Sequence record: NC_041937.1
Length of the DNA: 64,000 nucleotides
Strand: one strand, 5' to 3'
From: Escherichia phage V18
A program made the translations under genes and the position numbers. The stretch's first letter is position 1. Every line of letters starts with the position of its first letter. Below are positions 4,827 through 33,370 of this stretch, one piece after another. Below the pieces are notes generated by a model that made no database searches, was not told the origin of the DNA, and was given only the letters and a program-made list of their open reading frames with translations.

Positions 4827-5816
4827 TTGACGATGATGACAAAGTTAACTCTTGAGCAAATTTTAACACTAAAGCAACAGGGATACACTAATAGACAAAT
4901 TGCTCGTGAATTTTTAGGCCGTGAGTCACGTGAGAGCTGGATCCGACTACAGCTTAAACGTGCACAGGAGAATATGTCAGAGATTGTAGGAGAAGCAACG
5001 GAGCGCTTCCTTGAAGAGCACAAAGGTGCTAAAGTTTGGGTGTATGATACAGAGACATCTCCAACAAACGGCTGGTTCTTTGGGCACTATAAGACCAACA
5101 TTCAAACCTGCGGTATTGAAATTATGCCCTACATGCTAACTTTCGCAGGTAAGTGGTTAGACAGTCCTAGTGTGGTTGACTGCGCTCTTCCCGATTACAA
5201 AATGTGGGATGAGGATATTCACAATGATCTCGAATTGATTCAGGATTTGTGGTATTATCTGGATAAATGTGATGTCGCAGTAGCCCACAATTCAGGTTTT
5301 GACTGTGGGTGGGCCAACCAACGATTTGCATTTCACGGGTTGCCTCCAACAAGCCCCTACAAAGAGGTTGACACCCTTAAAATGATCAAGAAGGCATTCC
5401 GTTTGAATGCAAACACTTTGGAGTATGCATGCAAATACTTCCAACTGGCCCGACAGAAACTGATTGATCACACATTTGAAATGTGGATCAAGTGTGTCCA
5501 TGGTGATCTTGAGGCATTTAAACAGATGCGGGAGTATAATGTTGGTGATATCCTGTCTCTGGAAGGACTGTATTTGCTGGCTCGCCCGTTTGCTAAGCAG
5601 CACCCAAACATGTCATTGTACTATCAAGACGAGGAGCCAAAAGTTCGTTGTCCACGCTGTGGTGGAGAACACCTTCACGAGGAAGAAGCTTTGGCGTATA
5701 CTCAACTGAGTGCATTTAAAACATACCGCTGCGAAGGTTGTGGATCTGTTGTTCGTGACCGTAACAACATCCGCACCAGAGAAGAAATGAAAAATACCCT
5801 GATTCAGATAATCTAA
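4827..5816 (+). CDS. DEDD-family 3'-5' exonuclease with N-terminal HTH-like segment
   Basis: 329 aa; WVYDTETSP (Exo I), VAHNSGFDCGW (Exo II), YNVGDILSLEGLY (Exo III, YxxxD); N-terminal QGYTNRQIAREF; C-terminal CPRCGG…CEGCG zinc ribbon. Confidence 0.55.
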   Translation: MTMMTKLTLEQILTLKQQGYTNRQIAREFLGRESRESWIRLQLKRAQENMSEIVGEATERFLEEHKGAKVWVYDTETSPTNGWFFGHYKTNIQTCGIEIMPYMLTFAGKWLDSPSVVDCALPDYKMWDEDIHNDLELIQDLWYYLDKCDVAVAHNSGFDCGWANQRFAFHGLPPTSPYKEVDTLKMIKKAFRLNANTLEYACKYFQLARQKLIDHTFEMWIKCVHGDLEAFKQMREYNVGDILSLEGLYLLARPFAKQHPNMSLYYQDEEPKVRCPRCGGEHLHEEEALAYTQLSAFKTYRCEGCGSVVRDRNNIRTREEMKNTLIQII

Positions 5817-5824
5817 CAATTATA

Positions 5825-5850
5825 GGGAGGCTTGCGCCTCCCTTTTCCTT
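5825..5850 (+). terminator. rho-independent terminator
   Basis: GGGAGGC-ttgc-GCCTCCC stem-loop followed by TTTT, just after the stop of 4827..5816. Confidence 0.5.
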
Positions 5851-6678
5851 TTGGAGGCACTTTGAGCAAGAAAGAGTCCAACGACAAATACTACACAAAC
5901 CCTGAGTATGCAGAATATCTTGTTGGTAAAGTAAAAGATAAGTATGGGAATTGTGCATACGTTGAGCCTTCTGCTGGAAGGGGTTCTTTTTCAAAACTAT
6001 TTTCAGAGATACTGTCGTACGATTTAGTACCAGATCCTGAATTTGAAGGACCAACACCGTGCATTCAGGCAAACTTCTTGGAGGTGCATCCCAAGGCAGA
6101 TGTCTTCATAGGTAACCCACCATTTGGCAAGAATTCATCCTTAGCTTGCAAATTCTTTAACCATTGTGCATCATTGCTAGAGCTTGGAGGGGCTATAGCC
6201 TTCATCTTGCCACGGACATTTGAAAAAATTTTTTTCAAACAAACTGGACATGTCGATGCACCTTGTCTACAGCGAAAGGTGCCCTAAGAATTCGTTTTTA
6301 CTTAATGGCAAACCTTATGACGTGCCATGTGTTTTCCAAATTTGGGAGAAAAAGGCGTGCAATAGGGATCCTGTAGAGATTGGAGAGAATAAGTTATTTT
6401 CTTTTAGCACACCAGATGACTACGACTTCTGTGTAAGACGTGTTGGGTATAATGCTGGAAAAGTATTGGGGGATGATGACCCAAAATCTGAAGAATCAAC
6501 ATATTTCATAAAATCTTTAGTTAACGGTGTTGACAGAGTGTTTGCTGAATGCTATTCTTCTTTTCAAGAAGAAGCAGGTAAGACTGCTGGAATGAAGAGT
6601 ATAGGTAAGAAAGAACTACAATACATTTTGGAGACCAGGTATGATCAAAAGCATAGACTTGACCAAAGAACTTACTGA
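5832..6678 (+). CDS. N6-adenine DNA methyltransferase, frame interrupted near 6220-6290
   Basis: AdoMet motif EPSAGRGSF and catalytic IGNPPFGKN in ORF 5832..6287; continuation (…CVFQIWEKK) in ORF 6220..6678 in another frame; break in an A6T7 homopolymer stretch. Start codon uncertain. Confidence 0.5.
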
Positions 6679-7099
6679 TGCAAAAGCTTTTGGTGAGACA
6701 GCGGTACAAAGAGGACAGGCGATGGGACTGGCACTACCTTTCGTCTTAAAAGAGCACTTTACAGATTTTCAACTTATCAAAGGTGATAAGGGAATGCTTA
6801 TCCTGGAGCATAAGTTGAGTAAGAAACGCTATAAAGTCGTTTTTAATTCTAAAGCTCCAACAAAACTGGGATTCAGAACTTACAATCTTAACCCATCCTA
6901 CACTAAGGGTGTTGGAAGGGTAGAACAACAGCATTTCAGTGCCAGAGCTTCTTTAGCCCCTTTGATGCTAAATTTCTCAGGGGTGGCTTTAGGATACCTT
7001 GATAAGAAAAGGGTTCTTCATGTTCGTTTCACAGACTTTGTAACGCTTTTAGCTAACAACGAGGTTGATGAGAAGGGACGTGTAAAAACAAACTTCTAA
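6641..7099 (+). CDS. hypothetical protein
   Basis: 152-aa ORF, no recognisable motif. Confidence 0.3.
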   Translation: MIKSIDLTKELTDAKAFGETAVQRGQAMGLALPFVLKEHFTDFQLIKGDKGMLILEHKLSKKRYKVVFNSKAPTKLGFRTYNLNPSYTKGVGRVEQQHFSARASLAPLMLNFSGVALGYLDKKRVLHVRFTDFVTLLANNEVDEKGRVKTNF

Positions 7100-7325
7100 T
7101 AACGCATAGTATGATTGGAGACCGAAATGACACAATGACACTAGAGTTAACAATTCCAGACAGCTTTTCAGAAAACTTTATCCCAGAAATGATGAGTAAG
7201 ATGCGATCATTGCTTGATCAGATTGAGGAGGCTGTTTGGGAAGACGATGCTGTAGTGGCTAACGAGCTGGTAGATAAGTGTAAAAGTATTATTGATGCAG
7301 TTGAAGAATACCACGGAGGTTTTTA

Positions 7326-7940
7326 ATGGATATTATTGTTCTTAACGCCCCACCCAGCAGTGGTAAGGATCACATTGCAGATCTCTTGTTGGAAGCTATT
7401 CCTAACTCACACCACCGTGAGGTTAAGGAAATGCTCTTCAGTGTGGCAATTAAGGCAGCTGGTGTAACTCCTCAACTCTGGAATGCACTTTATGACCGCC
7501 ACTACAAAGAAGAGCCTTGCCCTTTCTTAATGATAGACGGCAAGCATGTTTCTCCGCGAGAATGGATGATCCATTGTAGTGAAAATCTGATTAAACCTAT
7601 CTTTGGTGAAGATGCTTTCGGTAAAGCCGCAGTCGCATCTTTGAAGAAAGATTTCCCTGAAGGTAAAGGGGTTATTGTTTACTCCGATGGGGGATTCAAA
7701 GAGGAGCTGGCATGCCTTAGCGAGTACGCATACAGCACAGGTGGAGATCTGTTGTTGTTCCGTATTCACCGTGTAGGATATGACTGGGGAAATGATTCCA
7801 GAACCTATCTAAGTCTGGAAAAGAACGGAATAAAAGGGGTTGAGTTTGATGTTGTAAACCCTGAAGGTGCACCTTGGGAGTGTGCATCGGAGATTGTGTG
7901 CAAGTATATTGATGTTAAAGAGGCCCAAGAAGAATGTTAA
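7326..7940 (+). CDS. P-loop deoxynucleoside monophosphate kinase-like protein (T4 gp1-like)
   Basis: N-terminal Walker-A-like LNAPPSSGKDHIAD, resembling the GxxxSGKD.xAD start of phage dNMP kinases; 204 aa. Confidence 0.45.
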   Translation: MDIIVLNAPPSSGKDHIADLLLEAIPNSHHREVKEMLFSVAIKAAGVTPQLWNALYDRHYKEEPCPFLMIDGKHVSPREWMIHCSENLIKPIFGEDAFGKAAVASLKKDFPEGKGVIVYSDGGFKEELACLSEYAYSTGGDLLLFRIHRVGYDWGNDSRTYLSLEKNGIKGVEFDVVNPEGAPWECASEIVCKYIDVKEAQEEC

Positions 7941-8527
7941 TCGGAATTGATGTAGATCTGACACTGGTAGATTCAGGAACAGCATGGTGGGAGTGGTTGG
8001 AGCGTTTGTATGGTCCAGCCAGTAAGACAGTAGCTAAACCTTCTAATGGGCTAATGTATTACGATCTGTCAAAGTATTGGCCTGATCGTCCCAAAGAAAA
8101 CATCATAGGACCTTTTGATTTCTGGAGTGATCCGTTCCTCTACGACTTCCTTAAGCCTGAAGAGGGGGCTATTGAGGTTATGAAAGATTTGGTGGCTCGT
8201 GGTCACAAGCTTGCATTTATCTCGGTATGCAAGAAAGGTCACCTTGCATCTAAATCAAGGTTCTTAAAGCGTTGGACCAGTGATTTTATGGATCTGGACG
8301 ACCACACCCAGGGCCACGGCTTCTACGCCACACATTTCAAAGGGAATGTGGCTGTAGATGTTATAATTGACGACAGGCATGAATACCTGAACCAATTCGC
8401 TTCACGACCTGAAGTTATTAAAATCCTAAAAGATACGCCTTATGAGCAATTCGAGGAGTTAAAGGTCAGTGTTGACTATACCGCTAATAGCTGGTATAAA
8501 ATAGGAAAATTTTTAGAAGGTATTTGA
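7934..8527 (+). CDS. HAD-superfamily phosphatase (putative 5'-deoxynucleotidase)
   Basis: N-terminal IGIDVDLTLVDS (DxDxT HAD motif I) and C-terminal VDVIIDDR (motif IV-like); 197 aa. Confidence 0.5.
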   Translation: MLIGIDVDLTLVDSGTAWWEWLERLYGPASKTVAKPSNGLMYYDLSKYWPDRPKENIIGPFDFWSDPFLYDFLKPEEGAIEVMKDLVARGHKLAFISVCKKGHLASKSRFLKRWTSDFMDLDDHTQGHGFYATHFKGNVAVDVIIDDRHEYLNQFASRPEVIKILKDTPYEQFEELKVSVDYTANSWYKIGKFLEGI

Positions 8528-8728
8528 AATGGGCAGATGTTCTAAAGGTGGCGATCCTGTAGTCAGATATGGTGACTGGCTAGAGGTGTATGATCTAGAA
8601 GGTAAGCTAGTGTATGCCTCTAGGATCACCCAAGATATGTGCTCTGACATGTTCAACAGATACCTTGCATTTAAGGCCAACATAAACCCAGACGAAATTT
8701 CCAAAATTAAAACAAGGAGAGCTAAATA

Positions 8729-9712
8729 ATGCTAAAACTGTGCACTGCAAAGATTATTGCTGACAGCATTTCCGAGAAAGGTAAGCGTATCACCACTTTT
8801 GAACTAGAGTATCCTCGAATTATTCACTCAGAGCTTATGACGCACCGAGTGTTCAGCCGAAACGCCATGTCTTCCCGTGCAGTACCTGTCGGCAAGATGC
8901 TGCAACAGATTGTGGAGAATCCGGCAATGCCAGTTCGCTTCGGTGTAAATAAGCGAGGAATGGAAGATGGTGGGGAACACGATCAAAAGATCCGTGTAGA
9001 GTACACTGACATGGAGCTAACTCCTGAAGAGTTTTGGAAAGAAGCTGCAAAAAACGCCGCTTGGCATGCAGAGAAGTTCGCCCTTGCTGGTTACCATAAG
9101 CAAGTATGTAACCGCTTAGTGGAGCCGTTCCAGCGCATGAAAACAGTTGTAACAAGCACCGAGTGGAATAATTTTTTCCACCTCCGTTGCTGGCACGATG
9201 CGGATCCTACGATTCAGATGTTAGCTAATTGTATGTGGGAGGCTCTTGAGAATAGCACTCCTGAAATCCTTAAACCGGGTCAATGGCACACCCCATATGT
9301 AGAGCACGTTTATTTGGACGGAGAGTTTAACTACGCTGTACGTGACACAGAAGGAAAGCTTTGCATTCTCGATACTAAAGAAGCTCTGTCTATCAGTGCT
9401 AGTTGCTGTGCACAAGTATCTTATCGAAATATTGACAGCACGTTTGAAAAGGCAGATAGTGTTGCTAAAAAATTGATTGGTGGGGATCGTATTCATGCAA
9501 GCCCTTACGAGCACCAGGCAACACCTATGGATCACGATAATGCAATGGAACGTTTAAACTACTACCTGTCTTCATGTGAAATCACACAAGACATCAGTAC
9601 TTGGCAGGAAGGTGTAACCCATCAAGACCGTGATGGTAAATTCTGGTCTGCCAACTTTTGTGGGTGGGTTCAGCACAGACAACTGCTTAATAACCACTTC
9701 GTGAAAGGTTAA
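8729..9712 (+). CDS. thyX: flavin-dependent thymidylate synthase
   Basis: ThyX signature MTHRVFSRNAMSSRAVP (RHR…S…S.R); 327 aa. Confidence 0.8.
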   Translation: MLKLCTAKIIADSISEKGKRITTFELEYPRIIHSELMTHRVFSRNAMSSRAVPVGKMLQQIVENPAMPVRFGVNKRGMEDGGEHDQKIRVEYTDMELTPEEFWKEAAKNAAWHAEKFALAGYHKQVCNRLVEPFQRMKTVVTSTEWNNFFHLRCWHDADPTIQMLANCMWEALENSTPEILKPGQWHTPYVEHVYLDGEFNYAVRDTEGKLCILDTKEALSISASCCAQVSYRNIDSTFEKADSVAKKLIGGDRIHASPYEHQATPMDHDNAMERLNYYLSSCEITQDISTWQEGVTHQDRDGKFWSANFCGWVQHRQLLNNHFVKG

Positions 9713-9741
9713 TCCTATCACAGCGATAGGTAACTTTTGTG

Positions 9742-9770
9742 TTGACTAATAGTATCAGATAATCTATAAT
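9742..9770 (+). promoter_or_regulatory. sigma70-like promoter
   Basis: TTGACT 9742-9747, 17 bp spacer, TATAAT 9765-9770. Confidence 0.5.
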
Positions 9771-9771
9771 A

Positions 9772-10272
9772 ATGGCTCACTTTGTTAGTGAGCCAGAAAT
9801 GGAGACAGATATGAGTAATGTTATGATTCCTAAAAAGACATTTATTTCAGTTACTTTGGATTTCCTATCTACCGTTCCAGGGTTTAACGTTCGCACACGA
9901 AACGGTCTCCGAGCTGCACTCTTTGCCGTAGGGTTTGATTTAAAAAGTATTGATGTTCTTCGTGGAAAAAACGTTCGATGCAAAAATAAGCCAACACATT
10001 ATCGAAAGGCAGATGTATTTGCTGGTGTCATGCGTGCAGACTTTAGATACCCGCAAATGTATAACGGTGTAGATATTTTAGATGTAGATAAAGCACCCGG
10101 TGAGGCAATGCTTGTTCAAGATCTTCCGTATGATATCCCTGTAGAGGATCGTGTTAATGTAAGAAAGTATACAAAACAATCTGAAAAGGCTGAAGATATT
10201 CATATTGTTGATGAACCTTTCAATTTTGAAGATCTGCATCGCCTGGAAAAATTATTCGGTATTGAAAGCTAA
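9772..10272 (+). CDS. hypothetical protein (true start probably at the internal ATG near 9811)
   Basis: The ORF ATG at 9772 lies 1 nt after the -10 box; GGAGA at 9802-9806 precedes the ATG at 9811. Confidence 0.35.
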   Translation: MAHFVSEPEMETDMSNVMIPKKTFISVTLDFLSTVPGFNVRTRNGLRAALFAVGFDLKSIDVLRGKNVRCKNKPTHYRKADVFAGVMRADFRYPQMYNGVDILDVDKAPGEAMLVQDLPYDIPVEDRVNVRKYTKQSEKAEDIHIVDEPFNFEDLHRLEKLFGIES

Positions 10273-10509
10273 GGTGGTGAAGATGAGTCATAACTCCAAG
10301 TGGAAGGATCTTGGTTTTGCAAGTCGGGCAGAGTATGTTGGTTGGCTTTGGTTCAACGGCCTGACAAACGATATTAAAATGTATGATGATGTTTATTATG
10401 ACGAGTATACAGGTAAAATTATAAATATCTCTGTAGAAGAGGATACCTTTATCCAGCAAGATACTGATACCTGCCTTGATAAATACGTTAATGAAGTGGA
10501 GGAAGCAAA

Positions 10510-12825
10510 TTGATCACCAAGGTAATTAAAAGCAACGGATGTGAAGTGGCATTCGATCCAGAACGTTTAAATAAGGCAGCTATTTTCGGTGACGACGGTA
10601 ACGGCAATTGGTCACATATTGCACTGGATGCCTACAAGCGGTTGTATGATGGATGTACAACCAAAGAAGTTAACCAAGCTATTATAGACTCTTGTGTTAG
10701 CCGTAAAGACGAAGCACATTCCCGTATGGCTGGTCGTGTTCTTATTGGTCAGATCTATAAAGAGGCTTTTGGAGGGTTTACAAAGATCCCTTCCTTACCA
10801 TCATTTTACAATGACATGGTTGAGAAAGGTTATTGGGAGGATATGGGTTATAGCTTTACCGAGCTAAACACTTTAGACGCTGTTATTGACCACAGTAAAG
10901 ATCTCGGTTATGGCTATGCAGTCCTTAAACAGTTTCGCGACAAATACGGGATCAAGGATACTCTTAAAGACACCTTGTTTGAATCTCCCCAGATGATGTT
11001 TATGGGGATAGCAATGGCTGTCATGAAGAATATGCCGAAAGAACGTCGTATCAACGATGTTGTAAAATTATACACTTATCTGTCCGACTTAAAGATCAAT
11101 GCCCCGACACCGTACTTAAACGGGCTGCGCACAGGTAAGACAGGGTATGCATCTTGTTGTGTAATAAAAGCTGACGATACAGCAAAATCTATTGGTGTGG
11201 CACGTGAAGTTGCGTACACAATGACGGTTAACCAAGCAGGTATCGGCTACTACTTATCCTCAAGATCTGCAGGCGATGGTGTTCGTGGTAACACTATTAA
11301 ACATATGGGTAAGATTCCATATTATCGAGGTATTGATGCTGGTGTTAAGGAGAACAGACAACAATCACGTGGCGGTTCTGCAACAGTATCATTCCTTGCA
11401 CTGGACCCGCAGATTGATGAGCTAATCCGTTTGAGAAACCCTATGACTGTTGCTTCAAAAAGAATCAACACCATGGACTACTCCATCGGTATTAATAGGT
11501 CGTTTATCAACCGTGTGGCTAAGAATTTAGATTGGATGCTTGTTTCTTATAAGCACGCTCCTCAACTGCATGAGGGTATCTTCACCATGTCTATGGAGGA
11601 GTTCGATGCAGAGGTTGAGCGTATTGCTAAAGATGACAGTATTCCTAAGACATGGATCCGGGCTAGAGATCTTGCTGTTGAGCTGATCACGCAGCGTACT
11701 GAGGTGGGAAGACTGTACGTATACTGGACAGATGAGATGAATAGACATACACCTTTTAAAGATGTGATCTATTCAAGCAACCTGTGTGCAGAAATAGCCC
11801 TCCCGACAAAAGGCTATTCAGATATGCGTAATATCTTCAAGTACGATGTTGATGATGGTGAGGTTGCATTGTGCTTCCTGTCATCTCTTGTAGCTGGAAG
11901 GGTTACCCCAGAGGAGTATGAGGATGTTGCATACTACACGGTGCTTATGATTGACAATGTTATGGAAATCATGACATATCCGTATGAAAACATGGAGAGT
12001 ACTGTTAAAAAACGCAGATCCATCGGGGTTGGCCTTACCAATGTTGCACATTTTATTGCCAGCCACAAGGTTACTTACGGATCTCCTGAAAGTAAACAGC
12101 TTGTTCACGATCTTGCAGAACTTCACAGCTACAGCTTGCATAAGGCAAGTTTACGGTTGGCAAAAGAGCGTGGTGTCTGCGAGTGGATGTATAAAACAAA
12201 ATATCCAGAAGGTTGGTTACCAATCGACACTTATAACAAAGAGGTCGATAGTGTGGTGAAAGATCCTTCTCTTAAACAGGATTGGGAAGGGTTACGTAAA
12301 GAAATCATTGAAAATGGTGGGCTACGTAATAGCGTTCTTGAAGCATATATGCCTAATGAAAGCTCTTCGCTGGCAACAAACACCACTAACGGGGTTTATC
12401 CTGTCCGTGAGCACATTATCTTTAAAAAGTCGCCACAAGGGCAGGTGCTGTTTATCGTTCCTGAATACGATGAGTTGAAAGAGTATTACACTTCGGCTTG
12501 GGACGTTGATACTAACGACATGATCGATATGTATGCTGTGATTCAAAAATTCACAGGTCAGGCAATCAGCGCGGATTTATACATAGACTACACCAAGTTG
12601 AAAGATGGTAAAATTTCAATGAAGGAGCAGCTAGGGTACCTTATCCGTGCCACTAAATTCGGGATGAAGACATGGTATTATTTAAACTCTAGGGTTGGTG
12701 CTGGTGACTCCTTGGCAGAGGAACTTCATGCCAAGAAACAGGCTGAAGATGAAACCAGAAAGAACTATCCTTTGATTGCAGATAGTTCAGTTGAAGATCC
12801 GTATTGCGAAAGTTGTGCACTATAA
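10510..12825 (+). CDS. nrdA: ribonucleotide reductase class Ia large subunit
   Basis: 771 aa; N-terminal ATP-cone-like VIKSNGCEVAFDPERLNKA, SSNLCAEIALP active-site region, C-terminal CESCAL redox Cys pair. Confidence 0.85.
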   Translation: MITKVIKSNGCEVAFDPERLNKAAIFGDDGNGNWSHIALDAYKRLYDGCTTKEVNQAIIDSCVSRKDEAHSRMAGRVLIGQIYKEAFGGFTKIPSLPSFYNDMVEKGYWEDMGYSFTELNTLDAVIDHSKDLGYGYAVLKQFRDKYGIKDTLKDTLFESPQMMFMGIAMAVMKNMPKERRINDVVKLYTYLSDLKINAPTPYLNGLRTGKTGYASCCVIKADDTAKSIGVAREVAYTMTVNQAGIGYYLSSRSAGDGVRGNTIKHMGKIPYYRGIDAGVKENRQQSRGGSATVSFLALDPQIDELIRLRNPMTVASKRINTMDYSIGINRSFINRVAKNLDWMLVSYKHAPQLHEGIFTMSMEEFDAEVERIAKDDSIPKTWIRARDLAVELITQRTEVGRLYVYWTDEMNRHTPFKDVIYSSNLCAEIALPTKGYSDMRNIFKYDVDDGEVALCFLSSLVAGRVTPEEYEDVAYYTVLMIDNVMEIMTYPYENMESTVKKRRSIGVGLTNVAHFIASHKVTYGSPESKQLVHDLAELHSYSLHKASLRLAKERGVCEWMYKTKYPEGWLPIDTYNKEVDSVVKDPSLKQDWEGLRKEIIENGGLRNSVLEAYMPNESSSLATNTTNGVYPVREHIIFKKSPQGQVLFIVPEYDELKEYYTSAWDVDTNDMIDMYAVIQKFTGQAISADLYIDYTKLKDGKISMKEQLGYLIRATKFGMKTWYYLNSRVGAGDSLAEELHAKKQAEDETRKNYPLIADSSVEDPYCESCAL

Positions 12826-12832
12826 TTTTAAA

Positions 12833-12852
12833 GGGGCTTCGGCCCCATTTTA
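12833..12852 (+). terminator. hairpin with UUCG tetraloop after nrdA
   Basis: GGGGC-ttcg-GCCCC followed by ATTTTA. Confidence 0.4.
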
Positions 12853-12864
12853 GAGGTTAGAATA

Positions 12865-13953
12865 ATGGCTGTATTTAATGCTGAGAACACCGCTCATAAA
12901 ACTGGTGACTATCCGCTGTTTTTAGGACAGCAAATGGGTATGTACGACTCTATCAACAAAAAATATCCACAACTGTTTGAACTATACAAAAAACAAAAAG
13001 AACAAGATTGGGCAGAGGATGAAGTGGATTTGTCGCAATCTATTTCAGATTTTGTAACATGCTCAAAGTCAACTTATGACGTGATGGTACAGACCTTGAT
13101 GTGGCAATGGGAGGCTGATAGCGTTGCGGCAAGATCGATCATCTGCCTCTTTTCACCGTTCATCACTAATAGTGAGCTTTTCACTCTATTGATGAAACAG
13201 TCGGAGATTGAAGTTCTTCACGCACTAACTTACTCAGAGATTGTTAGACAATGCCTCCCCAATGCCCGTGAGATTATAGAAGAGATTCAGGAAAACCAAA
13301 ACGTTCTGAGCAGATCCGGTGTTATTGTCAAATACATGCAAGAGCTAGAGGTTATTGGTGCAAAATACCGACTGGATCCTTCTAGTGTTGAAGAAGATGT
13401 TGTGCGGAAATGCATTCTTAGAGCGCTTTTTGCACTTTTAGCTCTGGAAAGTATTGAGTTTATTGCAAGTTTTGCATGCACTTTCGCAGTAGCTGAACAG
13501 GGTATCTTTGTTCAGGTGGCGCAGCTTGTTCAAAAAATCATGCTTGACGAAATGCTACATTCGAAAGGTGATTTTGCCATCATTGATATCTTGCTTAACG
13601 ATCCCGCATGGGAGAAAAGCTTCCTGGAGATAAAAGGGGAGTTAAAAGAGATTCTTGATGAAGTACGAACCAAAGAGTACGGTTGGAGTGACTATATTTT
13701 CAGCGAAGGAAGAGCGATTATAGGTCTTAACTCACCGTTGCTTAAAGAATGGGTTGACTATAACTGCTCACCGATTTATGATTACTACGACATCGACAAA
13801 GACTTTGTGCCGCCAACAAAGGACCCGCTACCGTTTATGCAGGTGTGGATGAAACCTTCATTGCAACAGACGGCGAACCAAGAAATGTCGAACACTGACT
13901 ACCGCGTCAACACAACTGTTAACGACGCTGAAGAAGAAATTTGGGAGTTTTAA
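12865..13953 (+). CDS. nrdB: ribonucleotide reductase class Ia small subunit
   Basis: 362 aa directly downstream of nrdA; ferritin-like E/H-rich helices (EIEVLHALTYSEI), acidic C-terminal tail …EEEIWEF. Confidence 0.8.
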   Translation: MAVFNAENTAHKTGDYPLFLGQQMGMYDSINKKYPQLFELYKKQKEQDWAEDEVDLSQSISDFVTCSKSTYDVMVQTLMWQWEADSVAARSIICLFSPFITNSELFTLLMKQSEIEVLHALTYSEIVRQCLPNAREIIEEIQENQNVLSRSGVIVKYMQELEVIGAKYRLDPSSVEEDVVRKCILRALFALLALESIEFIASFACTFAVAEQGIFVQVAQLVQKIMLDEMLHSKGDFAIIDILLNDPAWEKSFLEIKGELKEILDEVRTKEYGWSDYIFSEGRAIIGLNSPLLKEWVDYNCSPIYDYYDIDKDFVPPTKDPLPFMQVWMKPSLQQTANQEMSNTDYRVNTTVNDAEEEIWEF

Positions 13954-13956
13954 TAT

Positions 13957-14235
13957 ATGAGCTGCGAAAAATCTTTTTTCATCATCATTTACGGTAAGGA
14001 TAACTGCCCACACTGTGTCAGAGCAAAAGAATTTGCAATCAGCAAAGGTCTGCCTTTTGTATATAAGACACTTGGCGATGGCTACACAAAAGAAGAGCTT
14101 ATTGAGAAGTGTAGTCCAATTGTCCCCAGAACGTTGCCGCAGATCTTCTTAGAAAGCGATCTTGACAGTATCCATATAGGCGGTGCCGACGATTTCATCT
14201 CTTTTGTTAAGAATGGTTTTGGAGAGAAAAAGTGA
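13957..14235 (+). CDS. glutaredoxin / NrdH-like redoxin
   Basis: 92 aa; CPHC active site in IYGKDNCPHCVRAKEF; between the aerobic and anaerobic RNR genes. Confidence 0.7.
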   Translation: MSCEKSFFIIIYGKDNCPHCVRAKEFAISKGLPFVYKTLGDGYTKEELIEKCSPIVPRTLPQIFLESDLDSIHIGGADDFISFVKNGFGEKK

Positions 14236-16354
14236 AAGTTGTAAAACGGGACGGTAGAGAAGAGTTCTATAACGGAATTAAGGTGATCAAGGCGGCAGAG
14301 TCCGCCTTACTTGAGTCTGGACATACTGAAGAAGAAGCTTACCGGATCGCCTGCGCGGTTAATGAAGTTGTTGCTAACAATCTACCAACCGACCAGTGCA
14401 CGATCTCTGTAAAAAATATCCATATCCTTGTTGAAGATGCTCTTATGGATATGGGTTTAAAATGTGCAGCCAGAGAATACATCCAGTATAGACAGACAAG
14501 AGATAATAACAGAGAGGCAGGTGGAAAACTGCTTGCAGATATTAGTGGCTTCTTGGATCGAACTTGTGATGAATTTACAAAAGAAAACGCAAATAAGCCC
14601 ACTAATCATGTACACACTCATCGTGACCTGCTTGCAGGCATCCTTAGCAAACACCTTGCATCAACACAGATCCTGCCAGACCGTGTTTCAGAAGAGCACA
14701 ATAAAGGCTTCATCCATGTGCATGATCTTGACTACTTGATCAGTCCGTTAACAAACTGTTGTTTGGTAAATTATCCAGATATGTTGGAAAACGGATTCAA
14801 CATTGGCAACGCCCATGTCAGTAAGCCGAAGTCAATAGGGGTTGCAACAACAATCCTTAGCCAAATCTCTAGTGCGGTAGCTAGTGCTCAATATGGTGGT
14901 CAGACTATGAGCCATATTGATCATTATCTGGCACAGTATGCTGAAGCGACCTATGAGAAGAACCTTAAATTTTGCCAGGAACATTGGTTGCCAGATGCTG
15001 AGACTGTTGCAATGCAAATGACAGATAAAGACGTGTTTGACAGCATGCAGACGTTGCTTTATCAGATCAACACACTAACCTCGGTAAACGGTAACCCCTT
15101 TTATCACATTAAGTTTAGGTTTGGACACTTCGGTCTTTGGTAGAATGATTACCAAAAACTACCTGAAAGTCCACAAAATGGGTCTTGGTGAAGAACGTAT
15201 TACACCTGTGTTCCCTAAAGTGCTGTTCTTCCTAGAAGAGGGTGTCAACATGAACCCTGGGGATCCTAACTACGATTTGAAACGATTAGCTCTGGAATGC
15301 TGTGCAGAACGTATCTACCTGACTTCGTATCTGTACCACTAAATAGAAAAGTGACAGGCTCGACAGATGGCAAAGTAACGAGCATGGGATATGTAGAAGT
15401 TTCTTATCGAAATATAGCGACCCTGTAACAGGCGAGGAGAAATACCTTGGCAGATTTAACTTAGGCGTTGTTAGCCTTAACCTGCCAATGATTGCGGCAA
15501 AAGCTAAGACGGAAGGTGTTGATTTCTTTGCAGTTCTTGACGAATACTTGGATCTTGCATACGAGGCTCACCTTGTAAGGGTTAATCGTCTAAAAGGAAC
15601 AAAGGCGGGGCAGAACCCCATCATGTGGTGTGAAGGCGCTCTTGCTCGCCTGGATCCCGAAGAGAGTATTGATAAACTCTTCTATGACGGGTACGCTTCC
15701 ATCAGTATTGGGTATATCGGTGTGTATGAAACCTGTCAGATTTTGGGTAGAGAAGGCGACAAGGCTTTAGCTCTTGGAATCCTTCAGCACATGAGAGATG
15801 CTTGTGAGCGATACAAGAAGGAAAGTAGACTAGCATTTAGCTTGTACGGCACTCCTTCTGAGAGTCTATGCTATAAAGCTGCAACCTGTCTGGATCGTGA
15901 ATATCCGGAAGTGTTGAAGCACGAGCATGAATATCTCACCAACAGTTTCCATCAGCCAGTATGGATAAATAGCTCTCCTTTTGATAAGTGGGAGTATGAG
16001 GAAGGTTTTGCTATGATCTCCTCTGGTGGCAACATCGGATACGTAGAGACACCTAACCTGAAAAACAACCTGGATGCTTTAGAGGCCCTTGTTGACTTCG
16101 GGTATAAACACATTATGTATTTTGGTATTAACCAACCTGTAGATAAATGTCTCAAGTGTGGTTTCTCTGGTGAGTTCAGTGCAACAGCTAAAGGCTTTGT
16201 ATGCCCAGAGTGTGGAAACCATGAAGAGGGAACGATCAGTGTAATTCGACGTGTGTCTGGATACCTTTCCAGTCCTAACTCCCGTCCTTACAATAAAGGT
16301 AAGCAAGCGGAAGTTATCGAGCGAGTTAAGCACTACGGAAGTTGTGGTTGCTGA
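14232..16354 (+). CDS. nrdD: anaerobic ribonucleotide reductase (class III), reading frame broken in three places (possible pseudogene or indel errors)
   Basis: N-terminal ATP cone in frame 0 (14232..15143); middle segment …ITLSLGLDTSVFGRMITK…CCAERIY in frame +1; …PDFVSVPLNRKVTGSTDGKVTSMG in frame 0; C-terminal …CRSFLS…GRFNLGVVSLNLP…RVSGY (glycyl radical) and CLKCG…CPECG in frame +2 to 16354. Fragments sum to about 700 aa. Confidence 0.75.
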
Positions 16355-16530
16355 TTCTTGACAAAAGCCACAAGGATGTGGCATATTATTGACACACAGT
16401 GAGCTAGGAGGTGCAGTATGTCATCAGGTATTTATAAAATTTGCAAGTGTGGTTGTCGTTGCAATCTTCGTTGGTGCAAGGCACTAGACGATTTTATTTG
16501 GCATTGCCCTAAATGTGATGCGGAGTATCT

Positions 16531-17004
16531 ATGAACATTGTCGGATACACAGAAATATCTTACACCGAAGGGCCAGGTATTAGAACTGCCTTGTGGGTAT
16601 CTGGGTGCCCACACGCTTGCCCTGGTTGCTTTAATCAGGCATTTTGGTCAAAAGATAAGGGGAGGGAGTTCACTGAAGAAGATTTGCAAAAAATCTTGTC
16701 AGATTTAGATAACCTGTCTGTGTGCGGTATCTCTCTGCTGGGTGGAGAACCCTTAGCATACTATAATGAGCCAGATATTATTAGCCTGATGGAGAAAATT
16801 AAGGAAAAATTTGGTGACAAGAAAACTATTCTTGTATATACTGGGTTCACATTTGACCATATCTCTAGTGATGTTCTTAAACTGGCTGATATCATCATTG
16901 ACGGTAAGTATGTAAAAGATTTACCAACCAAGAAACCGTTCCGAGGCAGCGATAACCAAAGAATGTTTAAAAAAGTAGCAGGCGGTTGGGTTCAGGTAGA
17001 CTAG
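16531..17004 (+). CDS. nrdG: anaerobic RNR activating enzyme (radical SAM)
   Basis: 157 aa; CPHACPGC (CxxxCxxC radical SAM cluster motif); directly downstream of nrdD. Confidence 0.8.
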   Translation: MNIVGYTEISYTEGPGIRTALWVSGCPHACPGCFNQAFWSKDKGREFTEEDLQKILSDLDNLSVCGISLLGGEPLAYYNEPDIISLMEKIKEKFGDKKTILVYTGFTFDHISSDVLKLADIIIDGKYVKDLPTKKPFRGSDNQRMFKKVAGGWVQVD

Positions 17005-17007
17005 TTG

Positions 17008-17037
17008 TTGACAAAGCTTGGTTTAGATAGGTATAAT
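17008..17037 (+). promoter_or_regulatory. sigma70-like promoter
   Basis: TTGACA 17008-17013, 18 bp spacer, TATAAT 17032-17037; shares extended similarity with the promoter at 18400. Confidence 0.5.
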
Positions 17038-19926: not shown

Positions 19927-20460
19927 ATGACTTGTGCTAGAAAACCTGATGAACAACGTAACGCCTACGATGAGTATGTGACACCGGAGTGGTGTGCAGA
20001 AGGGCTGTATGACCTTATTCCGTTCCCAGAAGACTGGACCTACTTAGAGCCTTGCAGGAATAGTGCCTCAGGTGTGTTCTACTCCCGTATGCCGTTAGGA
20101 TCTGCATGGGGAGAAATCCAAGAAGGTGTTGACTATCTGAATACAGAATACAACCATGTTGACTGTATTATCACCAACCCACCATACAGTTTGGCTCGTG
20201 AGTTTGTAGACAAGGCGTTGAAAGATGCTGACGTAGTTATTATGCTTTTGCGTCTTAATTTTCTGGAAAGCAAAGCCAGATTTGAATGGTGGCTTGATAA
20301 TGCACCTACCACTGTGATCACAATATCTAAGCGTCCATCTTTTCAATCAAATGGCAGAACTGACGGGCAAGCATATGCATATTTTGTGTGGGATAAGAAA
20401 AACCGTTTAGGCTTGCCGCCATTTATGTGGTTGGCACCACCAGAGGTAGACCTGAAATGA
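19927..20460 (+). CDS. small N6-adenine DNA methyltransferase (phage Dam-like)
   Basis: 177 aa; catalytic motif CIITNPPYSLAREF (NPPY). Confidence 0.5.
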   Translation: MTCARKPDEQRNAYDEYVTPEWCAEGLYDLIPFPEDWTYLEPCRNSASGVFYSRMPLGSAWGEIQEGVDYLNTEYNHVDCIITNPPYSLAREFVDKALKDADVVIMLLRLNFLESKARFEWWLDNAPTTVITISKRPSFQSNGRTDGQAYAYFVWDKKNRLGLPPFMWLAPPEVDLK

Positions 20461-29809: not shown

Positions 29810-30796
29810 GGTGGATTATGTCTACAAAGGCGGCTAAATACTCTTACATGCCATCAACCTCTGCAGAGGTAGACTTTAGTTTCGATGTGTTTCCACTGTT
29901 TGAGGTGGTTCTGGCATACCCAACAATACTATCTACTCCTGAATCACTTGTGCCTGTTAAGTTGCAGAACGCTATGCATTCTATGCACTACAACAATAAA
30001 TGTAGGCACAGATGGTGTCAAGACGAGGAAAAAGATTTGGATAGTTTGAGGGATTTTGACAGTCACCTTTTGACACCTTTCAGCTACTCCAACCTTGATA
30101 AGCCTCATGGGTATAGCAAAATATCAAATTTAAGACACCTAGGACGCTCTGTGGCGTCCTTTTCTTTATCTGGTGCACGATTGCATACCTTGGACAGATA
30201 ATCCCGTTACAGAGCGTTTAAGAGCTTCCTACAAACAAATCTCTCTTTCGAGCGTAGCGAGAACGCACGTCCGTTTTGACCCAAATCACCATACGCTCGG
30301 ATTTTAACCAAACCCTCGCGGCGTTTCTGTTGACACATTACCGCTACCGTGATAGTATCCACACAGTTTGGAGAATATGGAATACACAATGAGAACATTG
30401 TCTGAAGTTTTAGTGGTGATCCTGATGATCATTACGTCTATAGCGGCTGTTGCCGGAATACTCACGGGTGGAACATGATCAACACACATGCATCTGAAGG
30501 AGTGACGACATGTAGCCTGGATGAGCCAGTTAAAGAGGAAAACTTAGATTCTGATGACTCTTCATCTTCGTCCCAGACAGATCCTGAGGCTGATGACCTA
30601 ACGTGGGAAGACATCGTAGACATCTGGTTCTCTATTATGCCTGAGCACGAAGAGTTCAGAGGTGGTAGACTATGAAGCACCGAGCCCACACAGATTCCTC
30701 ATGCTAAAGCATGGCCTGAAGAGGCAAACGTGCATAATTCCAGCGTATTGGAACGTATAAAACCCTGTTCACACTCTCATTTCCAGAGGAGATTTC

Positions 30797-31012
30797 ATGA
30801 AGATAGAAATATTTGGTGGAGCTGACAACACTCGTGGCCTGATTTACCTTGAATTTGATGAATCATACCTGCCAGAGGTGTTAAATATAGACTCTGTTGC
30901 TGAGGCTTTGGGAGTAAACCCTAAAGAACTCCACTCTTGTGCTGAGATCGATGGTTGGGAAGAGACCATGAACATTGATTTCAGTGAAGTGGAGGATGAA
31001 CCGCTAGACTGA
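30797..31012 (+). CDS. small acidic protein, last gene of the plus-strand arm
   Basis: 71 aa; MKIEIFGG…; acidic C-terminus. Confidence 0.4.
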   Translation: MKIEIFGGADNTRGLIYLEFDESYLPEVLNIDSVAEALGVNPKELHSCAEIDGWEETMNIDFSEVEDEPLD

Positions 31013-31362
31013 CGCACAATTAGCTGCCCGGCTAAAGTGCTGGAAGCACCTATAACACATCTTTCAACTAAATTTCCTACCACCACAATCACTTACCTCC
31101 CGCACATGACTGTTTGCTTGTTTAGTGAGCAGTCATGCCTTGACATTCTTGCCTATCCTGATAAAATTAAGTTCTTCTCTTTTCTTTTACCGAGTAATTC
31201 GGGTTTTCTGTTCTCTTCGGTTTGAAGGGGTATGGAGATACACCTGAGTGAACAGGGTGAACAACCGAACCATTAGCTATGGCATTAGCATGGCGAAGCG
31301 GACGGGTGACGAAAGAGGGGCCGGAGGACACCAGTCACTGCCATATGATATATGGGTGATAA

Positions 31363-31902
31363 CCTGAAGAGTCTGAATAAGTGTTTAAGTACCAGTCAGA
31401 GGAAAAGGTGAATGGTAGCCGAAGGGGGGAGGGGGGTTTCTTGTATCTTTAATTTGTATATTATGTATACACTTGTAAACCAATCTAATCTGAATCTGTT
31501 TACCACACAAAGCGGATAGAGACAAATATTGCCTATTAAACTTGAATTATTTATAGAAAATACCACAACACCCCTTAAGTCTTTGATTTACACACAAATC
31601 CTACAGATATTCAACCTCCATATTTAACATACTTGTAACATATTCCATACTCTACCTGTCTGATCAATTTCCCAACTACATTCTCATATTTTCCCTGTCT
31701 GTACTACCCCTGCCCCGCCGGGAGTCCCGTCATATCTGGCTTTCCAGCAAATATCACACCCACAAATATCATTGCCTGAAGAGGGTTTCATCCCATAATA
31801 CCTGCCTTACCTGAAGAGCGCTTCATACACCACGTAAATTTTTTAATTGACCTCCCCCTGCCCCTCCGGAGAGGTTGGCTTTTCCCACACAGACCTGAAG
31901 AG
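31363..31902. repeat. dispersed CCTGAAGAG repeat family in the inter-arm non-coding region
   Basis: Exact 9-mer at 31363-31371, 31775-31783, 31810-31818, 31894-31902; also CCCTGCCCCGCCGGGAG (about 31708) and CCCTGCCCCTCCGGAGAG (about 31853). Confidence 0.5.
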
Positions 31903-32495
31903 TCAGCCAGAAATATCTGAATAGGCCCGATCTGCCCAGTCAGGAGCCAGTAGCGACTGGAGTGCTGCCAGGCGGACGGAATGGGAATACTTCTCATTCT
32001 TATAACAATTCTCAAATATCGAGGCAGTGAGAGAAATTAATAGGCCAGGCCGTTCACACAGTGGCACAACATTTGCAACCTATCCTGTGGGGATGAATGA
32101 GAATACCTATCATTGTGAGAACTATTATCATTACGGGCAATTTAACATAATACCCATTATGCGCACCACTGGCGATACATACAGGGATTGATACCATGAG
32201 TTACAGTTTACACACATAACAATTATATTTCTTACTATTTGTGTGGGATATAGTTAGCAGCCAATAGATTAGATATTGACCTGTAGACTTCCAACCGTCT
32301 GGACGTCTAAACGCCCACACACCAAGGGTTATACATACATCGCTGAATGTAAACAGGGCCGCAAAAATGCTACCATACCAGTTTGTAAATTTTTCATGCA
32401 GCACTTGACAAAGAGGAGAAAAACTTGTCTGACACAATGTCACACAATATGACACTTTACACTGGACACACTAGGCACAAAAAAAAAAAACTGCA

Positions 32496-32720
32496 GTGAC
32501 TAGGTCACCCCTTCAGGTGTTTCTATGACATAATATAAAAGCAGGGCAACTATTACAAATCTAAAGTTGCCTTGCTTGTTATGTCATGATTAACTAAATA
32601 CAAGGCAACTATGATCTGATTAATAGTTTGCAGACAAACTATCACGGGGGTGATGGTTACTGCTTTTATATTATGTCGCGACTCCGTCGCGCCATGCCAT
32701 TCGTTTGCATAGTTGCCTTA
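32496..32720. repeat. iteron-like locus: nested inverted repeats and GGCAACT repeats (candidate origin/operator)
   Basis: Palindrome GTGACTAGGTCAC 32496-32508; 18-bp perfect inverted repeat GACATAATATAAAAGCAG 32527-32544 vs 32660-32677; CAAGGCAACT(T/A) at 32601-32610 (+) and 32564-32574 (-); AAGGCAACTATG at 32602-32613 (+) and 32708-32719 (-). Confidence 0.55.
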
Positions 32721-33370
32721 TTGTTACAGATAAAATAATTGTATTGTTAATTATTTCTTATCTTTCTATTAGTCATCTAATGATTCCAGTTAGTATAGTA
32801 ACGTATAGTAAACATTAGACGACTAAATATTTCTCTGTTTATGATAACTCACCGTAATAATTTCGGACTGTTTACGAAAAATGTTGACACCCTGGCTGAT
32901 TTATGTTATGCAATTTAAACGAATAATTATTTTATGCAGGTATTGACTATTCCGTTATTCTATGGTTGGAATAAATACTTAGCAGGCTATAGAATGGTGA
33001 GCGTACGTAAATTCTGAGATCTGTCGGCTATAGTTATACCCGATTTTTCACGTAGAACACGCTTTCGATGCTGTGTAAGTGTATGACTTATAAAGATTTT
33101 TAGTTGTTGACAAGATATTGGAGATGTGCATCAGGTTAAAATTTGTGCAATAGCGGCATTACGTGCACTTTTGGGAGAGAAAACGGGTAAAAATGGACTT
33201 GCTACCACACAATGAAAAATTATGCAATAGCTATTTTACATGTATGTTTGTACAGTGCGGGCAATTGATGGCTCGTCAATTATTCCACTTGCCAGGTAGG
33301 GCCGTTTATGGTAGGGGGAAGAGCAGACAAAAAGAAAGGGGCCTAAGCCCTTGATAATTCAGTTAAAAAA

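Follow-up and report, generated by a model that had tools for sequence, protein, structure and literature searches.

A conserved kinase, nucleotidase-like and ThyX gene block of Escherichia phage V18 that probably serves canonical dNTP supply

In animal cells, the NT5C enzymes cdN and mdN balance the pyrimidine pool together with deoxynucleoside kinases, and in bacteriophage T4 the domains of Pnkp are arranged with the kinase first and the phosphatase behind it. Thymidine hypermodification pathways use dUMP hydroxymethylases of the ThyA family, followed by amino-acid:DNA transferases at later steps (PMC8989533). The rV5 genome paper counts gp106, as thymidylate synthase, among a normal set of nucleotide-metabolism genes (PMC3606486). 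Here we compared these systems with a gene block in a 64,000-nucleotide stretch of Escherichia phage V18 (NC_041937.1), referred to below as the window.

In the DNA search, the query was 99.4% identical to rV5_ev147 and slur16, and the phage is an rV5-like Vequintavirus, an E. coli myophage; 116 records covered at least 80% of the query, and RudolfGeigy was 98.9% identical over the 4.5 kb queried. The earlier note had placed a kinase, a HAD phosphatase and ThyX together upstream of the ribonucleotide reductase (RNR) genes, and we found all three there, on the plus strand between 7326 and 9712. The RNR-related genes lie downstream of ThyX at 10510-17004, also on the plus strand. They comprise the class I enzymes NrdA (10510-12825) and NrdB (12865-13953), both recognized from annotated orthologues in RudolfGeigy and Murica, glutaredoxin (13957-14235; Pfam Glutaredoxin), the anaerobic RNR NrdD (14232-16354; Pfam NRDD plus ATP-cone and NRDD plus Gly_radical) and the activase NrdG (16531-17004; Pfam Fer4_12/Radical_SAM). 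NrdD is broken into ORFs in the window and, compared with Murica, has indels at 15091, 15317 and 15390.

Several conserved hypothetical proteins of PHROG families with unknown function are interspersed on the same strand. Proteins of 152 aa (6641-7099; PHROG 9938, with no Pfam or NCBIfam match) and 71 aa (7111-7326; PHROG 7393) precede the kinase, and a 66-aa protein (8529-8729; PHROG 4903) separates the HAD gene from ThyX, a position at which the record of Salmonella phage PVP-SE1 has a similar small protein (gp131). Two further ORFs lie between ThyX and NrdA (9772-10272 and about 10283-10513; PHROG 5557 and 5488), the former behind a near-consensus sigma-70-like promoter at 9742-9770 in which 11 of 12 positions match.

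The arrangement extends beyond the genus. PVP-SE1, which belongs to a different genus and shows about 50-60% amino-acid identity, carries in order an exonuclease gene, a small ORF, the kinase, the HAD gene, a small ORF and ThyX, followed by NrdA and NrdB. Vibrio phage 193E37-1 likewise has a kinase-HAD pair with overlapping ends, followed by a MazG-like gene; identity is about 31-35%. Since the order is kept in PVP-SE1 and the pair recurs in the Vibrio phage, the cluster is not a product of chance. The block itself is already known, as annotated nucleotide-metabolism genes of a very common coliphage group; our literature search returned no assay of any enzyme from the kinase-HAD-ThyX module.

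The kinase gene (7326-7940, plus strand) encodes a 204-aa P-loop protein resembling the T4 gp1 type of dNMP kinase. The protein matched PHROG 139, "deoxynucleoside monophosphate kinase", at an E value of 3.7e-44, and its AlphaFold (AF2) model (pLDDT 91) had T4 dNMP kinase 1DEK as the top PDB fold match in Foldseek (E 2.6e-6, TMq 0.57). Its P-loop, PPSSGKD, was aligned to VKRSGKD of T4 gp1 (hhalign E 1.9e-4). The protein thereby combines a fold nearest to gp1 with a Walker A motif ending in GKD, the two features by which we recognized gp1-type dNMP kinases, and the model predicts a fold of that type. Neither a single-sequence search nor a family profile retrieved a match for the kinase among PDB sequences, and the Pfam scan assigned it to no family. 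The kinase has homologues in phages as unlike one another as T1, phiEco32 and KLPN1, and we know of no report of hypermodified bases in these three. An assignment as 5-hmdU DNA kinase was rejected, the only match being a generic P-loop stretch of 23 residues in the ViI protein YP_004327432. In many Vequintavirus records, the label "hypothetical protein" for this gene could be replaced by dNMP kinase-like.

The HAD gene (7934-8527, plus strand) begins ahead of the kinase stop, with a 7-nt overlap, and its 197-aa product scored 27.1 bits with Pfam NT5C against a cut-off of 24.8, NT5C being its sole Pfam family at E ≤ 0.01. A single-sequence search of PDB sequences gave no match, and a family profile was needed, which retrieved human mitochondrial 5'(3')-deoxyribonucleotidase mdN (1MH9, E 1e-5), the putative bacterial protein 3BWV over its full length (E 1.8e-5) and human cdN (2I7D). 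The family alignment shows no variation at D6, D8, T10, D146 and D147; the DxDxT of motif I and the DD of motif IV are thus both present alongside the Pfam score by which NT5C-type HAD proteins are recognized. As judged from these sequence features, the gene product is a putative NT5C-type, 5'(3')-deoxyribonucleotidase-like phosphatase with intact catalytic Asp motifs, a description that could take the place of "hypothetical protein" in many Vequintavirus records. Distant homologues of the HAD protein, at 24-29% identity, were found in phages of Salmonella, Klebsiella and Serratia with genomes of 157-160 kb, which, from their size and host, we take to be ViI-like.

The third gene (8729-9712, plus strand) encodes a divergent, long-form ThyX of 327 aa. 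Its product matched PHROG 85, "thymidylate synthase" (E 5e-113), and Pfam Thy1 (PF02511) at 38.1 bits, above the gathering threshold of 24.8. The Thy1 match was limited to residues 23-179, corresponding to profile positions 60-191 of 191, and the score with the NCBIfam ThyX equivalog TIGR02170 was 39.5 bits, below its cut-off of 87.9. The homology behind the label "thymidylate synthase" in a large phage family thus does not reach the curated cut-off of the equivalog. No PDB sequence was matched in a single-sequence search, and the family profile retrieved just one ThyX chain (E 1.3). As PDB sequence and profile searches were unproductive for both the kinase and ThyX, fold comparison was needed for the two proteins. 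For the AF2 model of ThyX (pLDDT 77), the top PDB matches listed were either ThyX structures or PolB, a ThyX-like methylase, at TM-scores of about 0.5 on target length.

When the protein was aligned to Thermotoga maritima (Tm) ThyX, TM0449, its core (residues 14-178) corresponded to Tm 54-199 (hhalign E 3.6e-4), and the stretch from T38 to R50 retained all of the RHRxxSxxxxSxR motif except the first Arg, THRxxSxxxxSSR being aligned to Tm RHRxxSxxxxSGR. Phage residues H39, R40, S43, N45, S48, R50 and R153 are equivalent to Tm H79, R80, S83, N85, S88, R90 and R174, whereas Tm R78, E86, R74 and Q75 are replaced by T38, A46, S34 and E35. The Thr in place of the first Arg is invariant in 25 family members. 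Its weight as a warning sign is lessened by the ThyX of phages with the canonical form, in which the triplet also varies (KHQ, KHE or KHK). An alignment of 25 ThyX sequences at about 55-60% identity contained about 100 invariant columns, including H39, R40, S48, R50, R129, R153, H256, S258, P259, E261 and H262, and homologues in the databases number more than 7,000. These data indicated that the protein is a Thy1-fold enzyme keeping most ThyX motif residues, and the alignment points to strong purifying selection.

The order of segments in this ThyX differs from the canonical one, in which N-terminal helices with the His53/SPFEH motif precede the RHR core. Ahead of its core, the phage protein has no counterpart of the N-terminal helical segment (Tm about 17-53), and residues 223-262, behind the core, were aligned to Tm 22-59 (hhalign E 0.0026-0.0072), the segment ending in HASPYEH as the equivalent of Tm HETPFEH (His53). 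None of 300 column shuffles matched the score of this alignment. Because Pfam scans of the C-terminal fragment alone yielded no Thy1 match, the claim of a relocated segment rests on the hhalign alignment and the shuffle control. A weak match was also recorded between residues 305-319 and Tm 159-173 (hhalign E 0.011-0.023), and a comparison of the N- and C-terminal halves detected no internal repeat (E 0.39). A second, truncated "RHR" at the C terminus (GWVQHRQL), picked out by eye, was discarded, since hhalign gave no alignment to the Tm RHR region. A literature search on permuted ThyX turned up nothing relevant. On balance, we favor the view that the long ThyX is rearranged, either by circular permutation or as what is left of a tandem Thy1 duplication. 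The ThyX of a large phage family would then be an atypical protein with an apparently rearranged Thy1 domain.

The earlier note had read the three genes as a normal dNTP-supply module, and family, fold and synteny evidence bore this out. We consider it probable that the module is a conserved pyrimidine/dNTP-pool block feeding canonical dNTPs to phage replication. ThyX would use methylene-tetrahydrofolate with reduced flavin to turn dUMP into dTMP. As no other thymidylate synthase is annotated in the rV5-type phage, a plain dTMP role fits it best. The kinase would convert dNMPs, supplied by ThyX and probably by breakdown of host DNA, to dNDPs, and the coupled nucleotidase would trim monophosphates of the dUMP/dTMP type. 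A kinase adjoining a phosphatase looks futile unless their specificities differ. The conserved translational coupling of the pair suggests a phage-encoded substrate cycle, in which kinase and phosphatase may balance the pyrimidine pool by analogy with cdN and mdN.

Four methyltransferase-like genes had been reported next to this module, and all four exist in the window, yet only the first adjoins the block and the others lie about 10, 47 and 49 kb away. The adjoining gene (5832-6678, plus strand) is an N6-adenine DNA methyltransferase-like gene split in two ORFs, one at 5832-6287 and the other at 6220-6678. The two parts match PHROG 5172 at profile positions 13-145 and 137-290, PHROG 799, "DNA methyltransferase", matches as well, and DNA alignment traced the frameshift to an A6T7 run near 6228 that is 2 nt short; RudolfGeigy and Murica each have a single ORF of 272 aa. 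PVP-SE1 has no methyltransferase gene between its exonuclease and kinase genes. Since it is absent from that position and is also frameshifted in the window, the adjacent methyltransferase is outside the conserved module.

The three distant genes belong to ordinary DNA methyltransferase families. The small protein of 177 aa (19927-20460, plus strand) matched PHROG 799 (E 5.5e-67) and, weakly and under the cut-off, Pfam EcoRI_methylase, and its RudolfGeigy counterpart is annotated as N6 adenine methyltransferase. The 261-aa protein (57129-57914, minus strand) matched PHROG 757, "DNA methyltransferase" (E 9e-87), and no Pfam or NCBIfam model; its counterpart in RudolfGeigy is annotated as "Dcm-like C5 cytosine methyltransferase". 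The 441-aa N6/N4 DNA methyltransferase (59145-60470, minus strand) scored 146.8 bits with Pfam N6_N4_Mtase, belongs to PHROG 67 and had matches under the cut-off to adenine-methyltransferase models, including CcrM. All four would act separately from the module, after replication, adding ordinary methyl marks, e.g., m6A and possibly m5C.

Whether these methyltransferases and the module jointly make a modified nucleotide had been left open by the earlier note, which called the idea speculative, and the suggestion gained no support, the adjacent gene being foreign to the module, the others distant and no exotic-base genes annotated in the relative RudolfGeigy. The remark that a hydroxymethylase is lacking agrees with the RudolfGeigy genome, in which no ThyA, hydroxymethylase, 5-hmdU DNA kinase, base transferase, DpdA or PurZ is annotated, a judgment from annotation that carries less weight than a full profile scan would. 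A "putative 1-3 fucosyltransferase" is annotated in RudolfGeigy, outside the window. The module proteins matched no ThyA-family or transferase model in Pfam, PHROG or NCBIfam. The gene set of thymidine hypermodification of the ViI, M6 and SP10 type (ThyA-family dUMP hydroxymethylase, 5-hmdU DNA kinase and the aGPT-Pplase transferase) was found neither among the module proteins nor in the RudolfGeigy annotation. Of the T4-type pathway to hydroxymethyl-cytosine, RudolfGeigy likewise has no annotated dCMP hydroxymethylase, dCTPase or DNA glucosyltransferase. Literature searches found no nucleoside mass spectrometry of any Vequintavirus and nothing relevant on a Vequintavirus with hypermodified bases or on nanopore methylation.

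A different product of the module itself was considered as an alternative, namely that the divergent ThyX releases, in place of dTMP, 5-hydroxymethyl-dUMP or some other C5 product, that the phosphatase depletes dTMP/dUMP and that the gp1-type kinase phosphorylates the modified dNMP for incorporation, the mark being either incomplete or one that leaves the restriction-modification (RM) systems tested so far unhindered. Trapping experiments on ThyX gave 5-hydroxymethyl-dUMP, which makes such chemistry conceivable, and the V18 enzyme is atypical in its TIGR02170 score, its THR triplet and its rearranged domain. The conserved pairing of kinase and phosphatase could be counted in the same direction, as could the nearest fold to the kinase, T4 gp1, which handles hm-dCMP in T4 according to an annotation note, and the occurrence of distant HAD homologues in presumably ViI-like phages. 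Phages of the ViI type carry 5-hmdU-derived bases (PMC8989533). However, the known dUMP/dCMP hydroxymethylases are all of the ThyA fold (PMC8989533), no ViI-like gene set was seen in the module or the RudolfGeigy annotation, the same kinase family is present in T1, phiEco32 and KLPN1, and a changed product would leave the phage with no other annotated thymidylate synthase. Moreover, Vequintavirinae were described in the BASEL study as "exceptionally susceptible" to RM systems and without effective protection (PMC8594841), and DNA of the relative Certrevirus CB7 was cut by BamHI, SspI and BglII and gave a ClaI pattern consistent with Dam methylation (PMC7344957). RM sensitivity is no rigorous exclusion of subtle or partial base replacement, and a non-canonical mark, if real, would have escaped notice because it blocks none of the RM systems tested. 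The genes and the published restriction tests leave the modified-base idea unsupported, and we regard this alternative as highly improbable; that the altered active site of the rearranged ThyX yields, with the kinase and nucleotidase, a product other than plain dTMP is a proposal to which we attach a slighter chance still. If true, this would be the first route to a non-canonical DNA pyrimidine that is based on ThyX, and it would be shared by Vequintavirinae and related phages.

The pair could also be a split polynucleotide 5'-kinase/3'-phosphatase of the T4 Pnkp kind that heals nucleic-acid ends and does not act on free nucleotides, as its kinase-then-HAD order with overlapping ends, its conservation across distant phages and the label "3'-phosphatase, 5'-polynucleotide kinase" of the feature under the matching stretch in the T1-like phage record H35 might imply. 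The fold matches point elsewhere, because 1DEK is followed by small-molecule P-loop kinases (adenylate and dephospho-CoA kinases), and none of the 50 matches listed is described as polynucleotide kinase. The NT5C assignment and the mdN/cdN matches of the HAD protein likewise differ from the PNK3P-type HAD that, with a fold nearest to Pnk, would mark the Pnkp type; neither mark appeared among the fold and Pfam matches. With a separate set of RNA ligase, polynucleotide kinase and phosphoesterase elsewhere in rV5-type genomes, and the pair itself located among ThyX and RNR genes, we hold a split Pnkp to be very unlikely. It is unlikely, too, that the long ThyX-like protein is no dUMP methylase at all, i.e., that it acts on another substrate, as PolB does on UMP, or is dead while host ThyA supplies dTMP. 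The score under the equivalog cut-off, the replacement of the four Tm residues and the presence of PolB, a ThyX-like UMP/dUMP methylase, among the fold matches fit such a reading, but they have to be set against apparent strong purifying selection, a conserved position beside the RNR genes, the thousands of homologues and the variation of the RHR triplet in canonical phage ThyX.

The module can be compared with the known systems nearest to it. Salmonella phage ViI has, like the rV5 module, a gp1-like gene, "dnk", with an SGKD-type P-loop, and both encode an enzyme for C1 transfer to a pyrimidine nucleotide. This enzyme is of the ThyX fold in the rV5 module, in contrast to a thyA-annotated gene in ViI, where the 5-hmdU DNA kinase (YP_004327432), the thyA-annotated gene, dnk and dUTPase stand side by side, a set with no counterpart in the rV5 module or the RudolfGeigy annotation. 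T4 gp1 and the phage kinase share a Walker A motif that, unusually, ends in Asp (SGKD), and they were aligned over the N-terminal 26 residues, at only about 15% identity; gp1 serves the hm-dC pathway, which is absent in the rV5-type phage. With the NT5C family (mdN 1MH9, cdN 2I7D and 3BWV), the HAD protein has the fold family and the DxDxT and DD motifs in common at low identity, and by analogy its role would be similar, the trimming of pyrimidine dNMP pools. Unlike the NT5C family, the phage gene is coupled translationally, through its 7-nt overlap, to a dNMP kinase gene. Finally, the long protein has the Thy1 fold in common with TM0449 and PBCV-1 ThyX (4FZB), measures 327 aa versus about 220 aa in TM0449-type ThyX and is encoded beside RNR genes, as are thymidylate synthases in many phages.

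The cluster of kinase, HAD phosphatase and ThyX genes is real, and the coordinates that the earlier note assigned to the three ORFs proved exact. Along its entire length, the interval 5800-10300 shares 99.4% identity with Escherichia phages rV5_ev147, rV5_ev156, slur16, and slur12, and at least 80% of it is covered by 116 phage records; by these sequence matches, the window is part of an rV5-like Vequintavirus. Such phages are very common myoviruses of E. coli, and their genomes measure about 136 kb. Two well-annotated relatives, RudolfGeigy (BASEL Bas52; 98.9% identical in 5800-10300) and Murica, were used as annotation guides. About 20 "Campylobacter phage" records (e.g., MG065654 C15 and MG065666 A12a), mostly without annotation, are also ca. 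98% identical to this region, apparently as a result of mislabelling or of contamination with rV5-like phage sequence. Since public records for near-identical phages carry annotations of these genes, the cluster is already known, and the sole residual novelty lies in an apparently rearranged ThyX of predicted activity and in a conserved kinase-nucleotidase coupling.

The kinase gene (7326-7940, + strand) encodes a 204-aa protein that matched PHROG 139, "deoxynucleoside monophosphate kinase" (E 3.7e-44), and no family in Pfam or NCBIfam scans. Its AlphaFold model, built from a 22-sequence alignment, is confident (pLDDT 91), and the top PDB fold match is the T4 dNMP kinase 1DEK (E 2.6e-6, TMq 0.57); the next matches are P-loop kinases of small molecules, adenylate and dephospho-CoA kinases among them. 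The N terminus and P-loop, MDIIVLNAPPSSGKDHIADLL, were aligned by hhalign to MKLIFLSGVKRSGKDTTADFI of T4 gp1 (E 1.9e-4), and the two share an unusual Asp after GK. The family is also carried by T1, phiEco32, and Klebsiella KLPN1-type phages. The neighboring gene (7934-8527, + strand) encodes a 197-aa NT5C-type HAD phosphatase (Pfam NT5C, 27.1 bits versus a threshold of 24.8), in which HAD motifs I and IV (D6, D8, T10, D146, and D147) are invariant. A profile of its homologues matches two human 5'(3')-deoxyribonucleotidases, the mitochondrial and the cytosolic enzyme, as well as 3BWV, a putative deoxyribonucleotidase (E 1e-5 to 1.8e-5). Animal relatives of this phosphatase prefer dUMP and dTMP.

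ThyX (8729-9712, + strand; 327 aa) belongs to PHROG 85 and to a large family of >7,000 database homologues of about 320 to 345 aa. It scores 38.1 bits against Pfam Thy1 (threshold, 24.8) and 39.5 bits against TIGR02170, far under the equivalog cutoff of 87.9, and its sequence matched no PDB sequence at E <= 1. The best PDB matches listed for its AlphaFold model (pLDDT 77) are ThyX structures and the ThyX-like methylase PolB. With the Thermotoga maritima ThyX sequence (identical to PDB 1KQ4/1O26) as the reference, residues 14-178 align with residues 54-199, placing T38-H39-R40...S48.R50 opposite R78-H79-R80...S88.R90 and R153 opposite R174. The Thr in place of Arg is of less concern than it seems at first, since KHQ, KHE, and KHK also occur at the RHR triplet in canonical phage ThyX sequences.

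Whereas canonical ThyX has an N-terminal helical segment ahead of the core, the phage protein has none there, and the segment matching the one that carries His53 and SPFEH appears to follow the catalytic core. By hhalign, residues 223-262 (SASCCAQVSYR...IHASPYEH), which are invariant across the family, correspond to T. maritima residues 22-59 (SAVRAARVSF...GHETPFEH, His53 included), with an E value of 0.011 for the single sequence and 0.0026 to 0.0072 for a 10-sequence canonical profile. The observed score was 27.6, and all of 300 column-shuffled controls stayed below it (mean, 13.7; sd, 2.6; maximum, 27.1). Because an N-terminal-type segment is found after the core and not before it, the protein looks circularly permuted or like the degenerate vestige of a tandem duplication of Thy1; a comparison within ThyX detected no internal repeat, and the segment after the core had no Pfam match. 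A limited literature search found no paper on this arrangement.

The last 7 nt of the kinase gene (7934-7940) are also the first of the HAD gene, which suggests that the two genes are translationally coupled. Their ends also overlap in two other phages, all three being distantly related: Vibrio phage 193E37-1 (8592-8602; 31 to 35% identity), in which a MazG-like NTP pyrophosphohydrolase gene directly follows the pair, and the Salmonella phage PVP-SE1 (5983-5990; genus Seunavirus), whose proteins are ca. 50 to 60% identical to those of the window. Outside the window, rV5-type genomes encode a protein that has an NTP-pyrophosphohydrolase-like domain. The order in PVP-SE1 is exonuclease, small ORF, kinase, HAD, small ORF, one extra ORF, ThyX, HNH gene, two small ORFs, NrdA, and NrdB; in the window, NrdA, NrdB, glutaredoxin, NrdD, and NrdG lie downstream of ThyX. 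Pattern scans revealed a strong hairpin, rich in G+C and with a T-run, directly after the exonuclease gene (5824-5843) and sigma-70-like promoters just after ThyX (9742-9770; near-consensus, 11/12 positions) and after nrdG (17008-17037; 12/12 positions). Promoter-like sites in total are no more frequent than in shuffled sequence, only the top sites being notable. The hairpin and the promoter at 9742-9770, consensus matches only, indicate that the methyltransferase-to-ThyX stretch may be a transcription unit of its own.

These data support the claim of a normal dNTP-supply module. Given the fold and family assignments shown for the three products, we infer the remaining mechanism: ThyX, besides which this type of phage has no annotated thymidylate synthase, would supply dTMP; the gp1-like kinase would convert dNMPs into dNDPs; and the NT5C-like phosphatase would remove surplus or unwanted pyrimidine dNMPs, such that kinase and phosphatase could form a substrate cycle that tunes the pool alongside the two RNRs, aerobic and anaerobic.

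The earlier note had combined this module with four methyltransferase-like genes. All four are present in the window (METHYLTRANSFERASES; 4/4), but only the N6-adenine methyltransferase-like gene at 5832-6678 (PHROG 5172 and 799) adjoins the module, and PVP-SE1 has none at the equivalent position. The other three lie 10 to 49 kb off among replication genes, at 19927-20460 (PHROG 799), 57129-57914 (- strand; PHROG 757; "Dcm-like" in the BASEL annotation), and 59145-60470 (- strand; Pfam N6_N4_Mtase, 146.8 bits), and seem to be ordinary phage enzymes of post-replicative DNA methylation rather than nucleotide-module partners. The adjoining gene is split into overlapping ORFs (5832-6287 and 6220-6678) by a 2-nt deficit at an A6T7 run near 6228, as compared with RudolfGeigy and Murica, whose gene is intact (272 aa). 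A genuine pseudogene, a slippery site, or a sequencing error in the homopolymer could each be the explanation. The matched stretch carries this methyltransferase product name twice in several other records (nomine, magaca, nimi, and inoa). The gene for the anaerobic RNR, nrdD (14232-16354), is likewise interrupted and gives at least two ORFs (14232-15143 and 15488-16354), neither of which covers Pfam NRDD profile positions ca. 166-289, with indels of -2 at 15091, -1 at 15317, and +2 at 15390 versus the single 707-aa ORF of Murica; RudolfGeigy nrdD is annotated as a two-piece join. Taken with the methyltransferase frameshift, these breaks may be assembly indel errors. Elsewhere, about 3 kb at 30200-33370 lacks any ORF of >=90 aa; it marks the junction of + strand with - strand genes and a change in the sign of the GC skew. 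Neither tandem repeats nor an Rfam match (E <= 0.1) turned up in it, and its RudolfGeigy counterpart (91,806-94,336) is likewise without annotation.

The speculation that the phage makes a modified nucleotide is unsupported: no sign of one was seen in gene content, distribution, or restriction data, none of which is nucleoside analysis, and no such analysis of this kind of phage DNA was found in the literature. A subtle or partial replacement, which such data could miss, is improbable. The annotated RudolfGeigy genome has no ThyA-type hydroxymethylase or DNA glucosyltransferase, nor a 5-hmdU DNA kinase, amino-acid:DNA transferase, DpdA, or PurZ. A "putative 1-3 fucosyltransferase" occurs in rV5-type genomes outside the window (RudolfGeigy MZ501102.1, 54682-55581). 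Published restriction phenotypes speak against the speculation in spirit: the BASEL study describes Vequintavirinae as exceptionally susceptible to restriction-modification systems, against which they have no effective protection (PMC8594841), DNA of the subfamily relative CB7 is cleaved by BamHI, SspI, and BglII, and its ClaI pattern is consistent with Dam methylation (PMC7344957). The rV5 genome paper gives gp106 simply as thymidylate synthase (PMC3606486). By comparison, in Salmonella phage ViI, with genuine thymidine hypermodification, genes for a 5-hmdU DNA kinase, a thyA-annotated protein, dnk, and dUTPase adjoin, and the dUMP hydroxymethylases of such pathways belong to the classical ThyA family. 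The rV5 kinase has only a generic P-loop in common with the ViI 5-hmdU DNA kinase and is nearer the dnk type.
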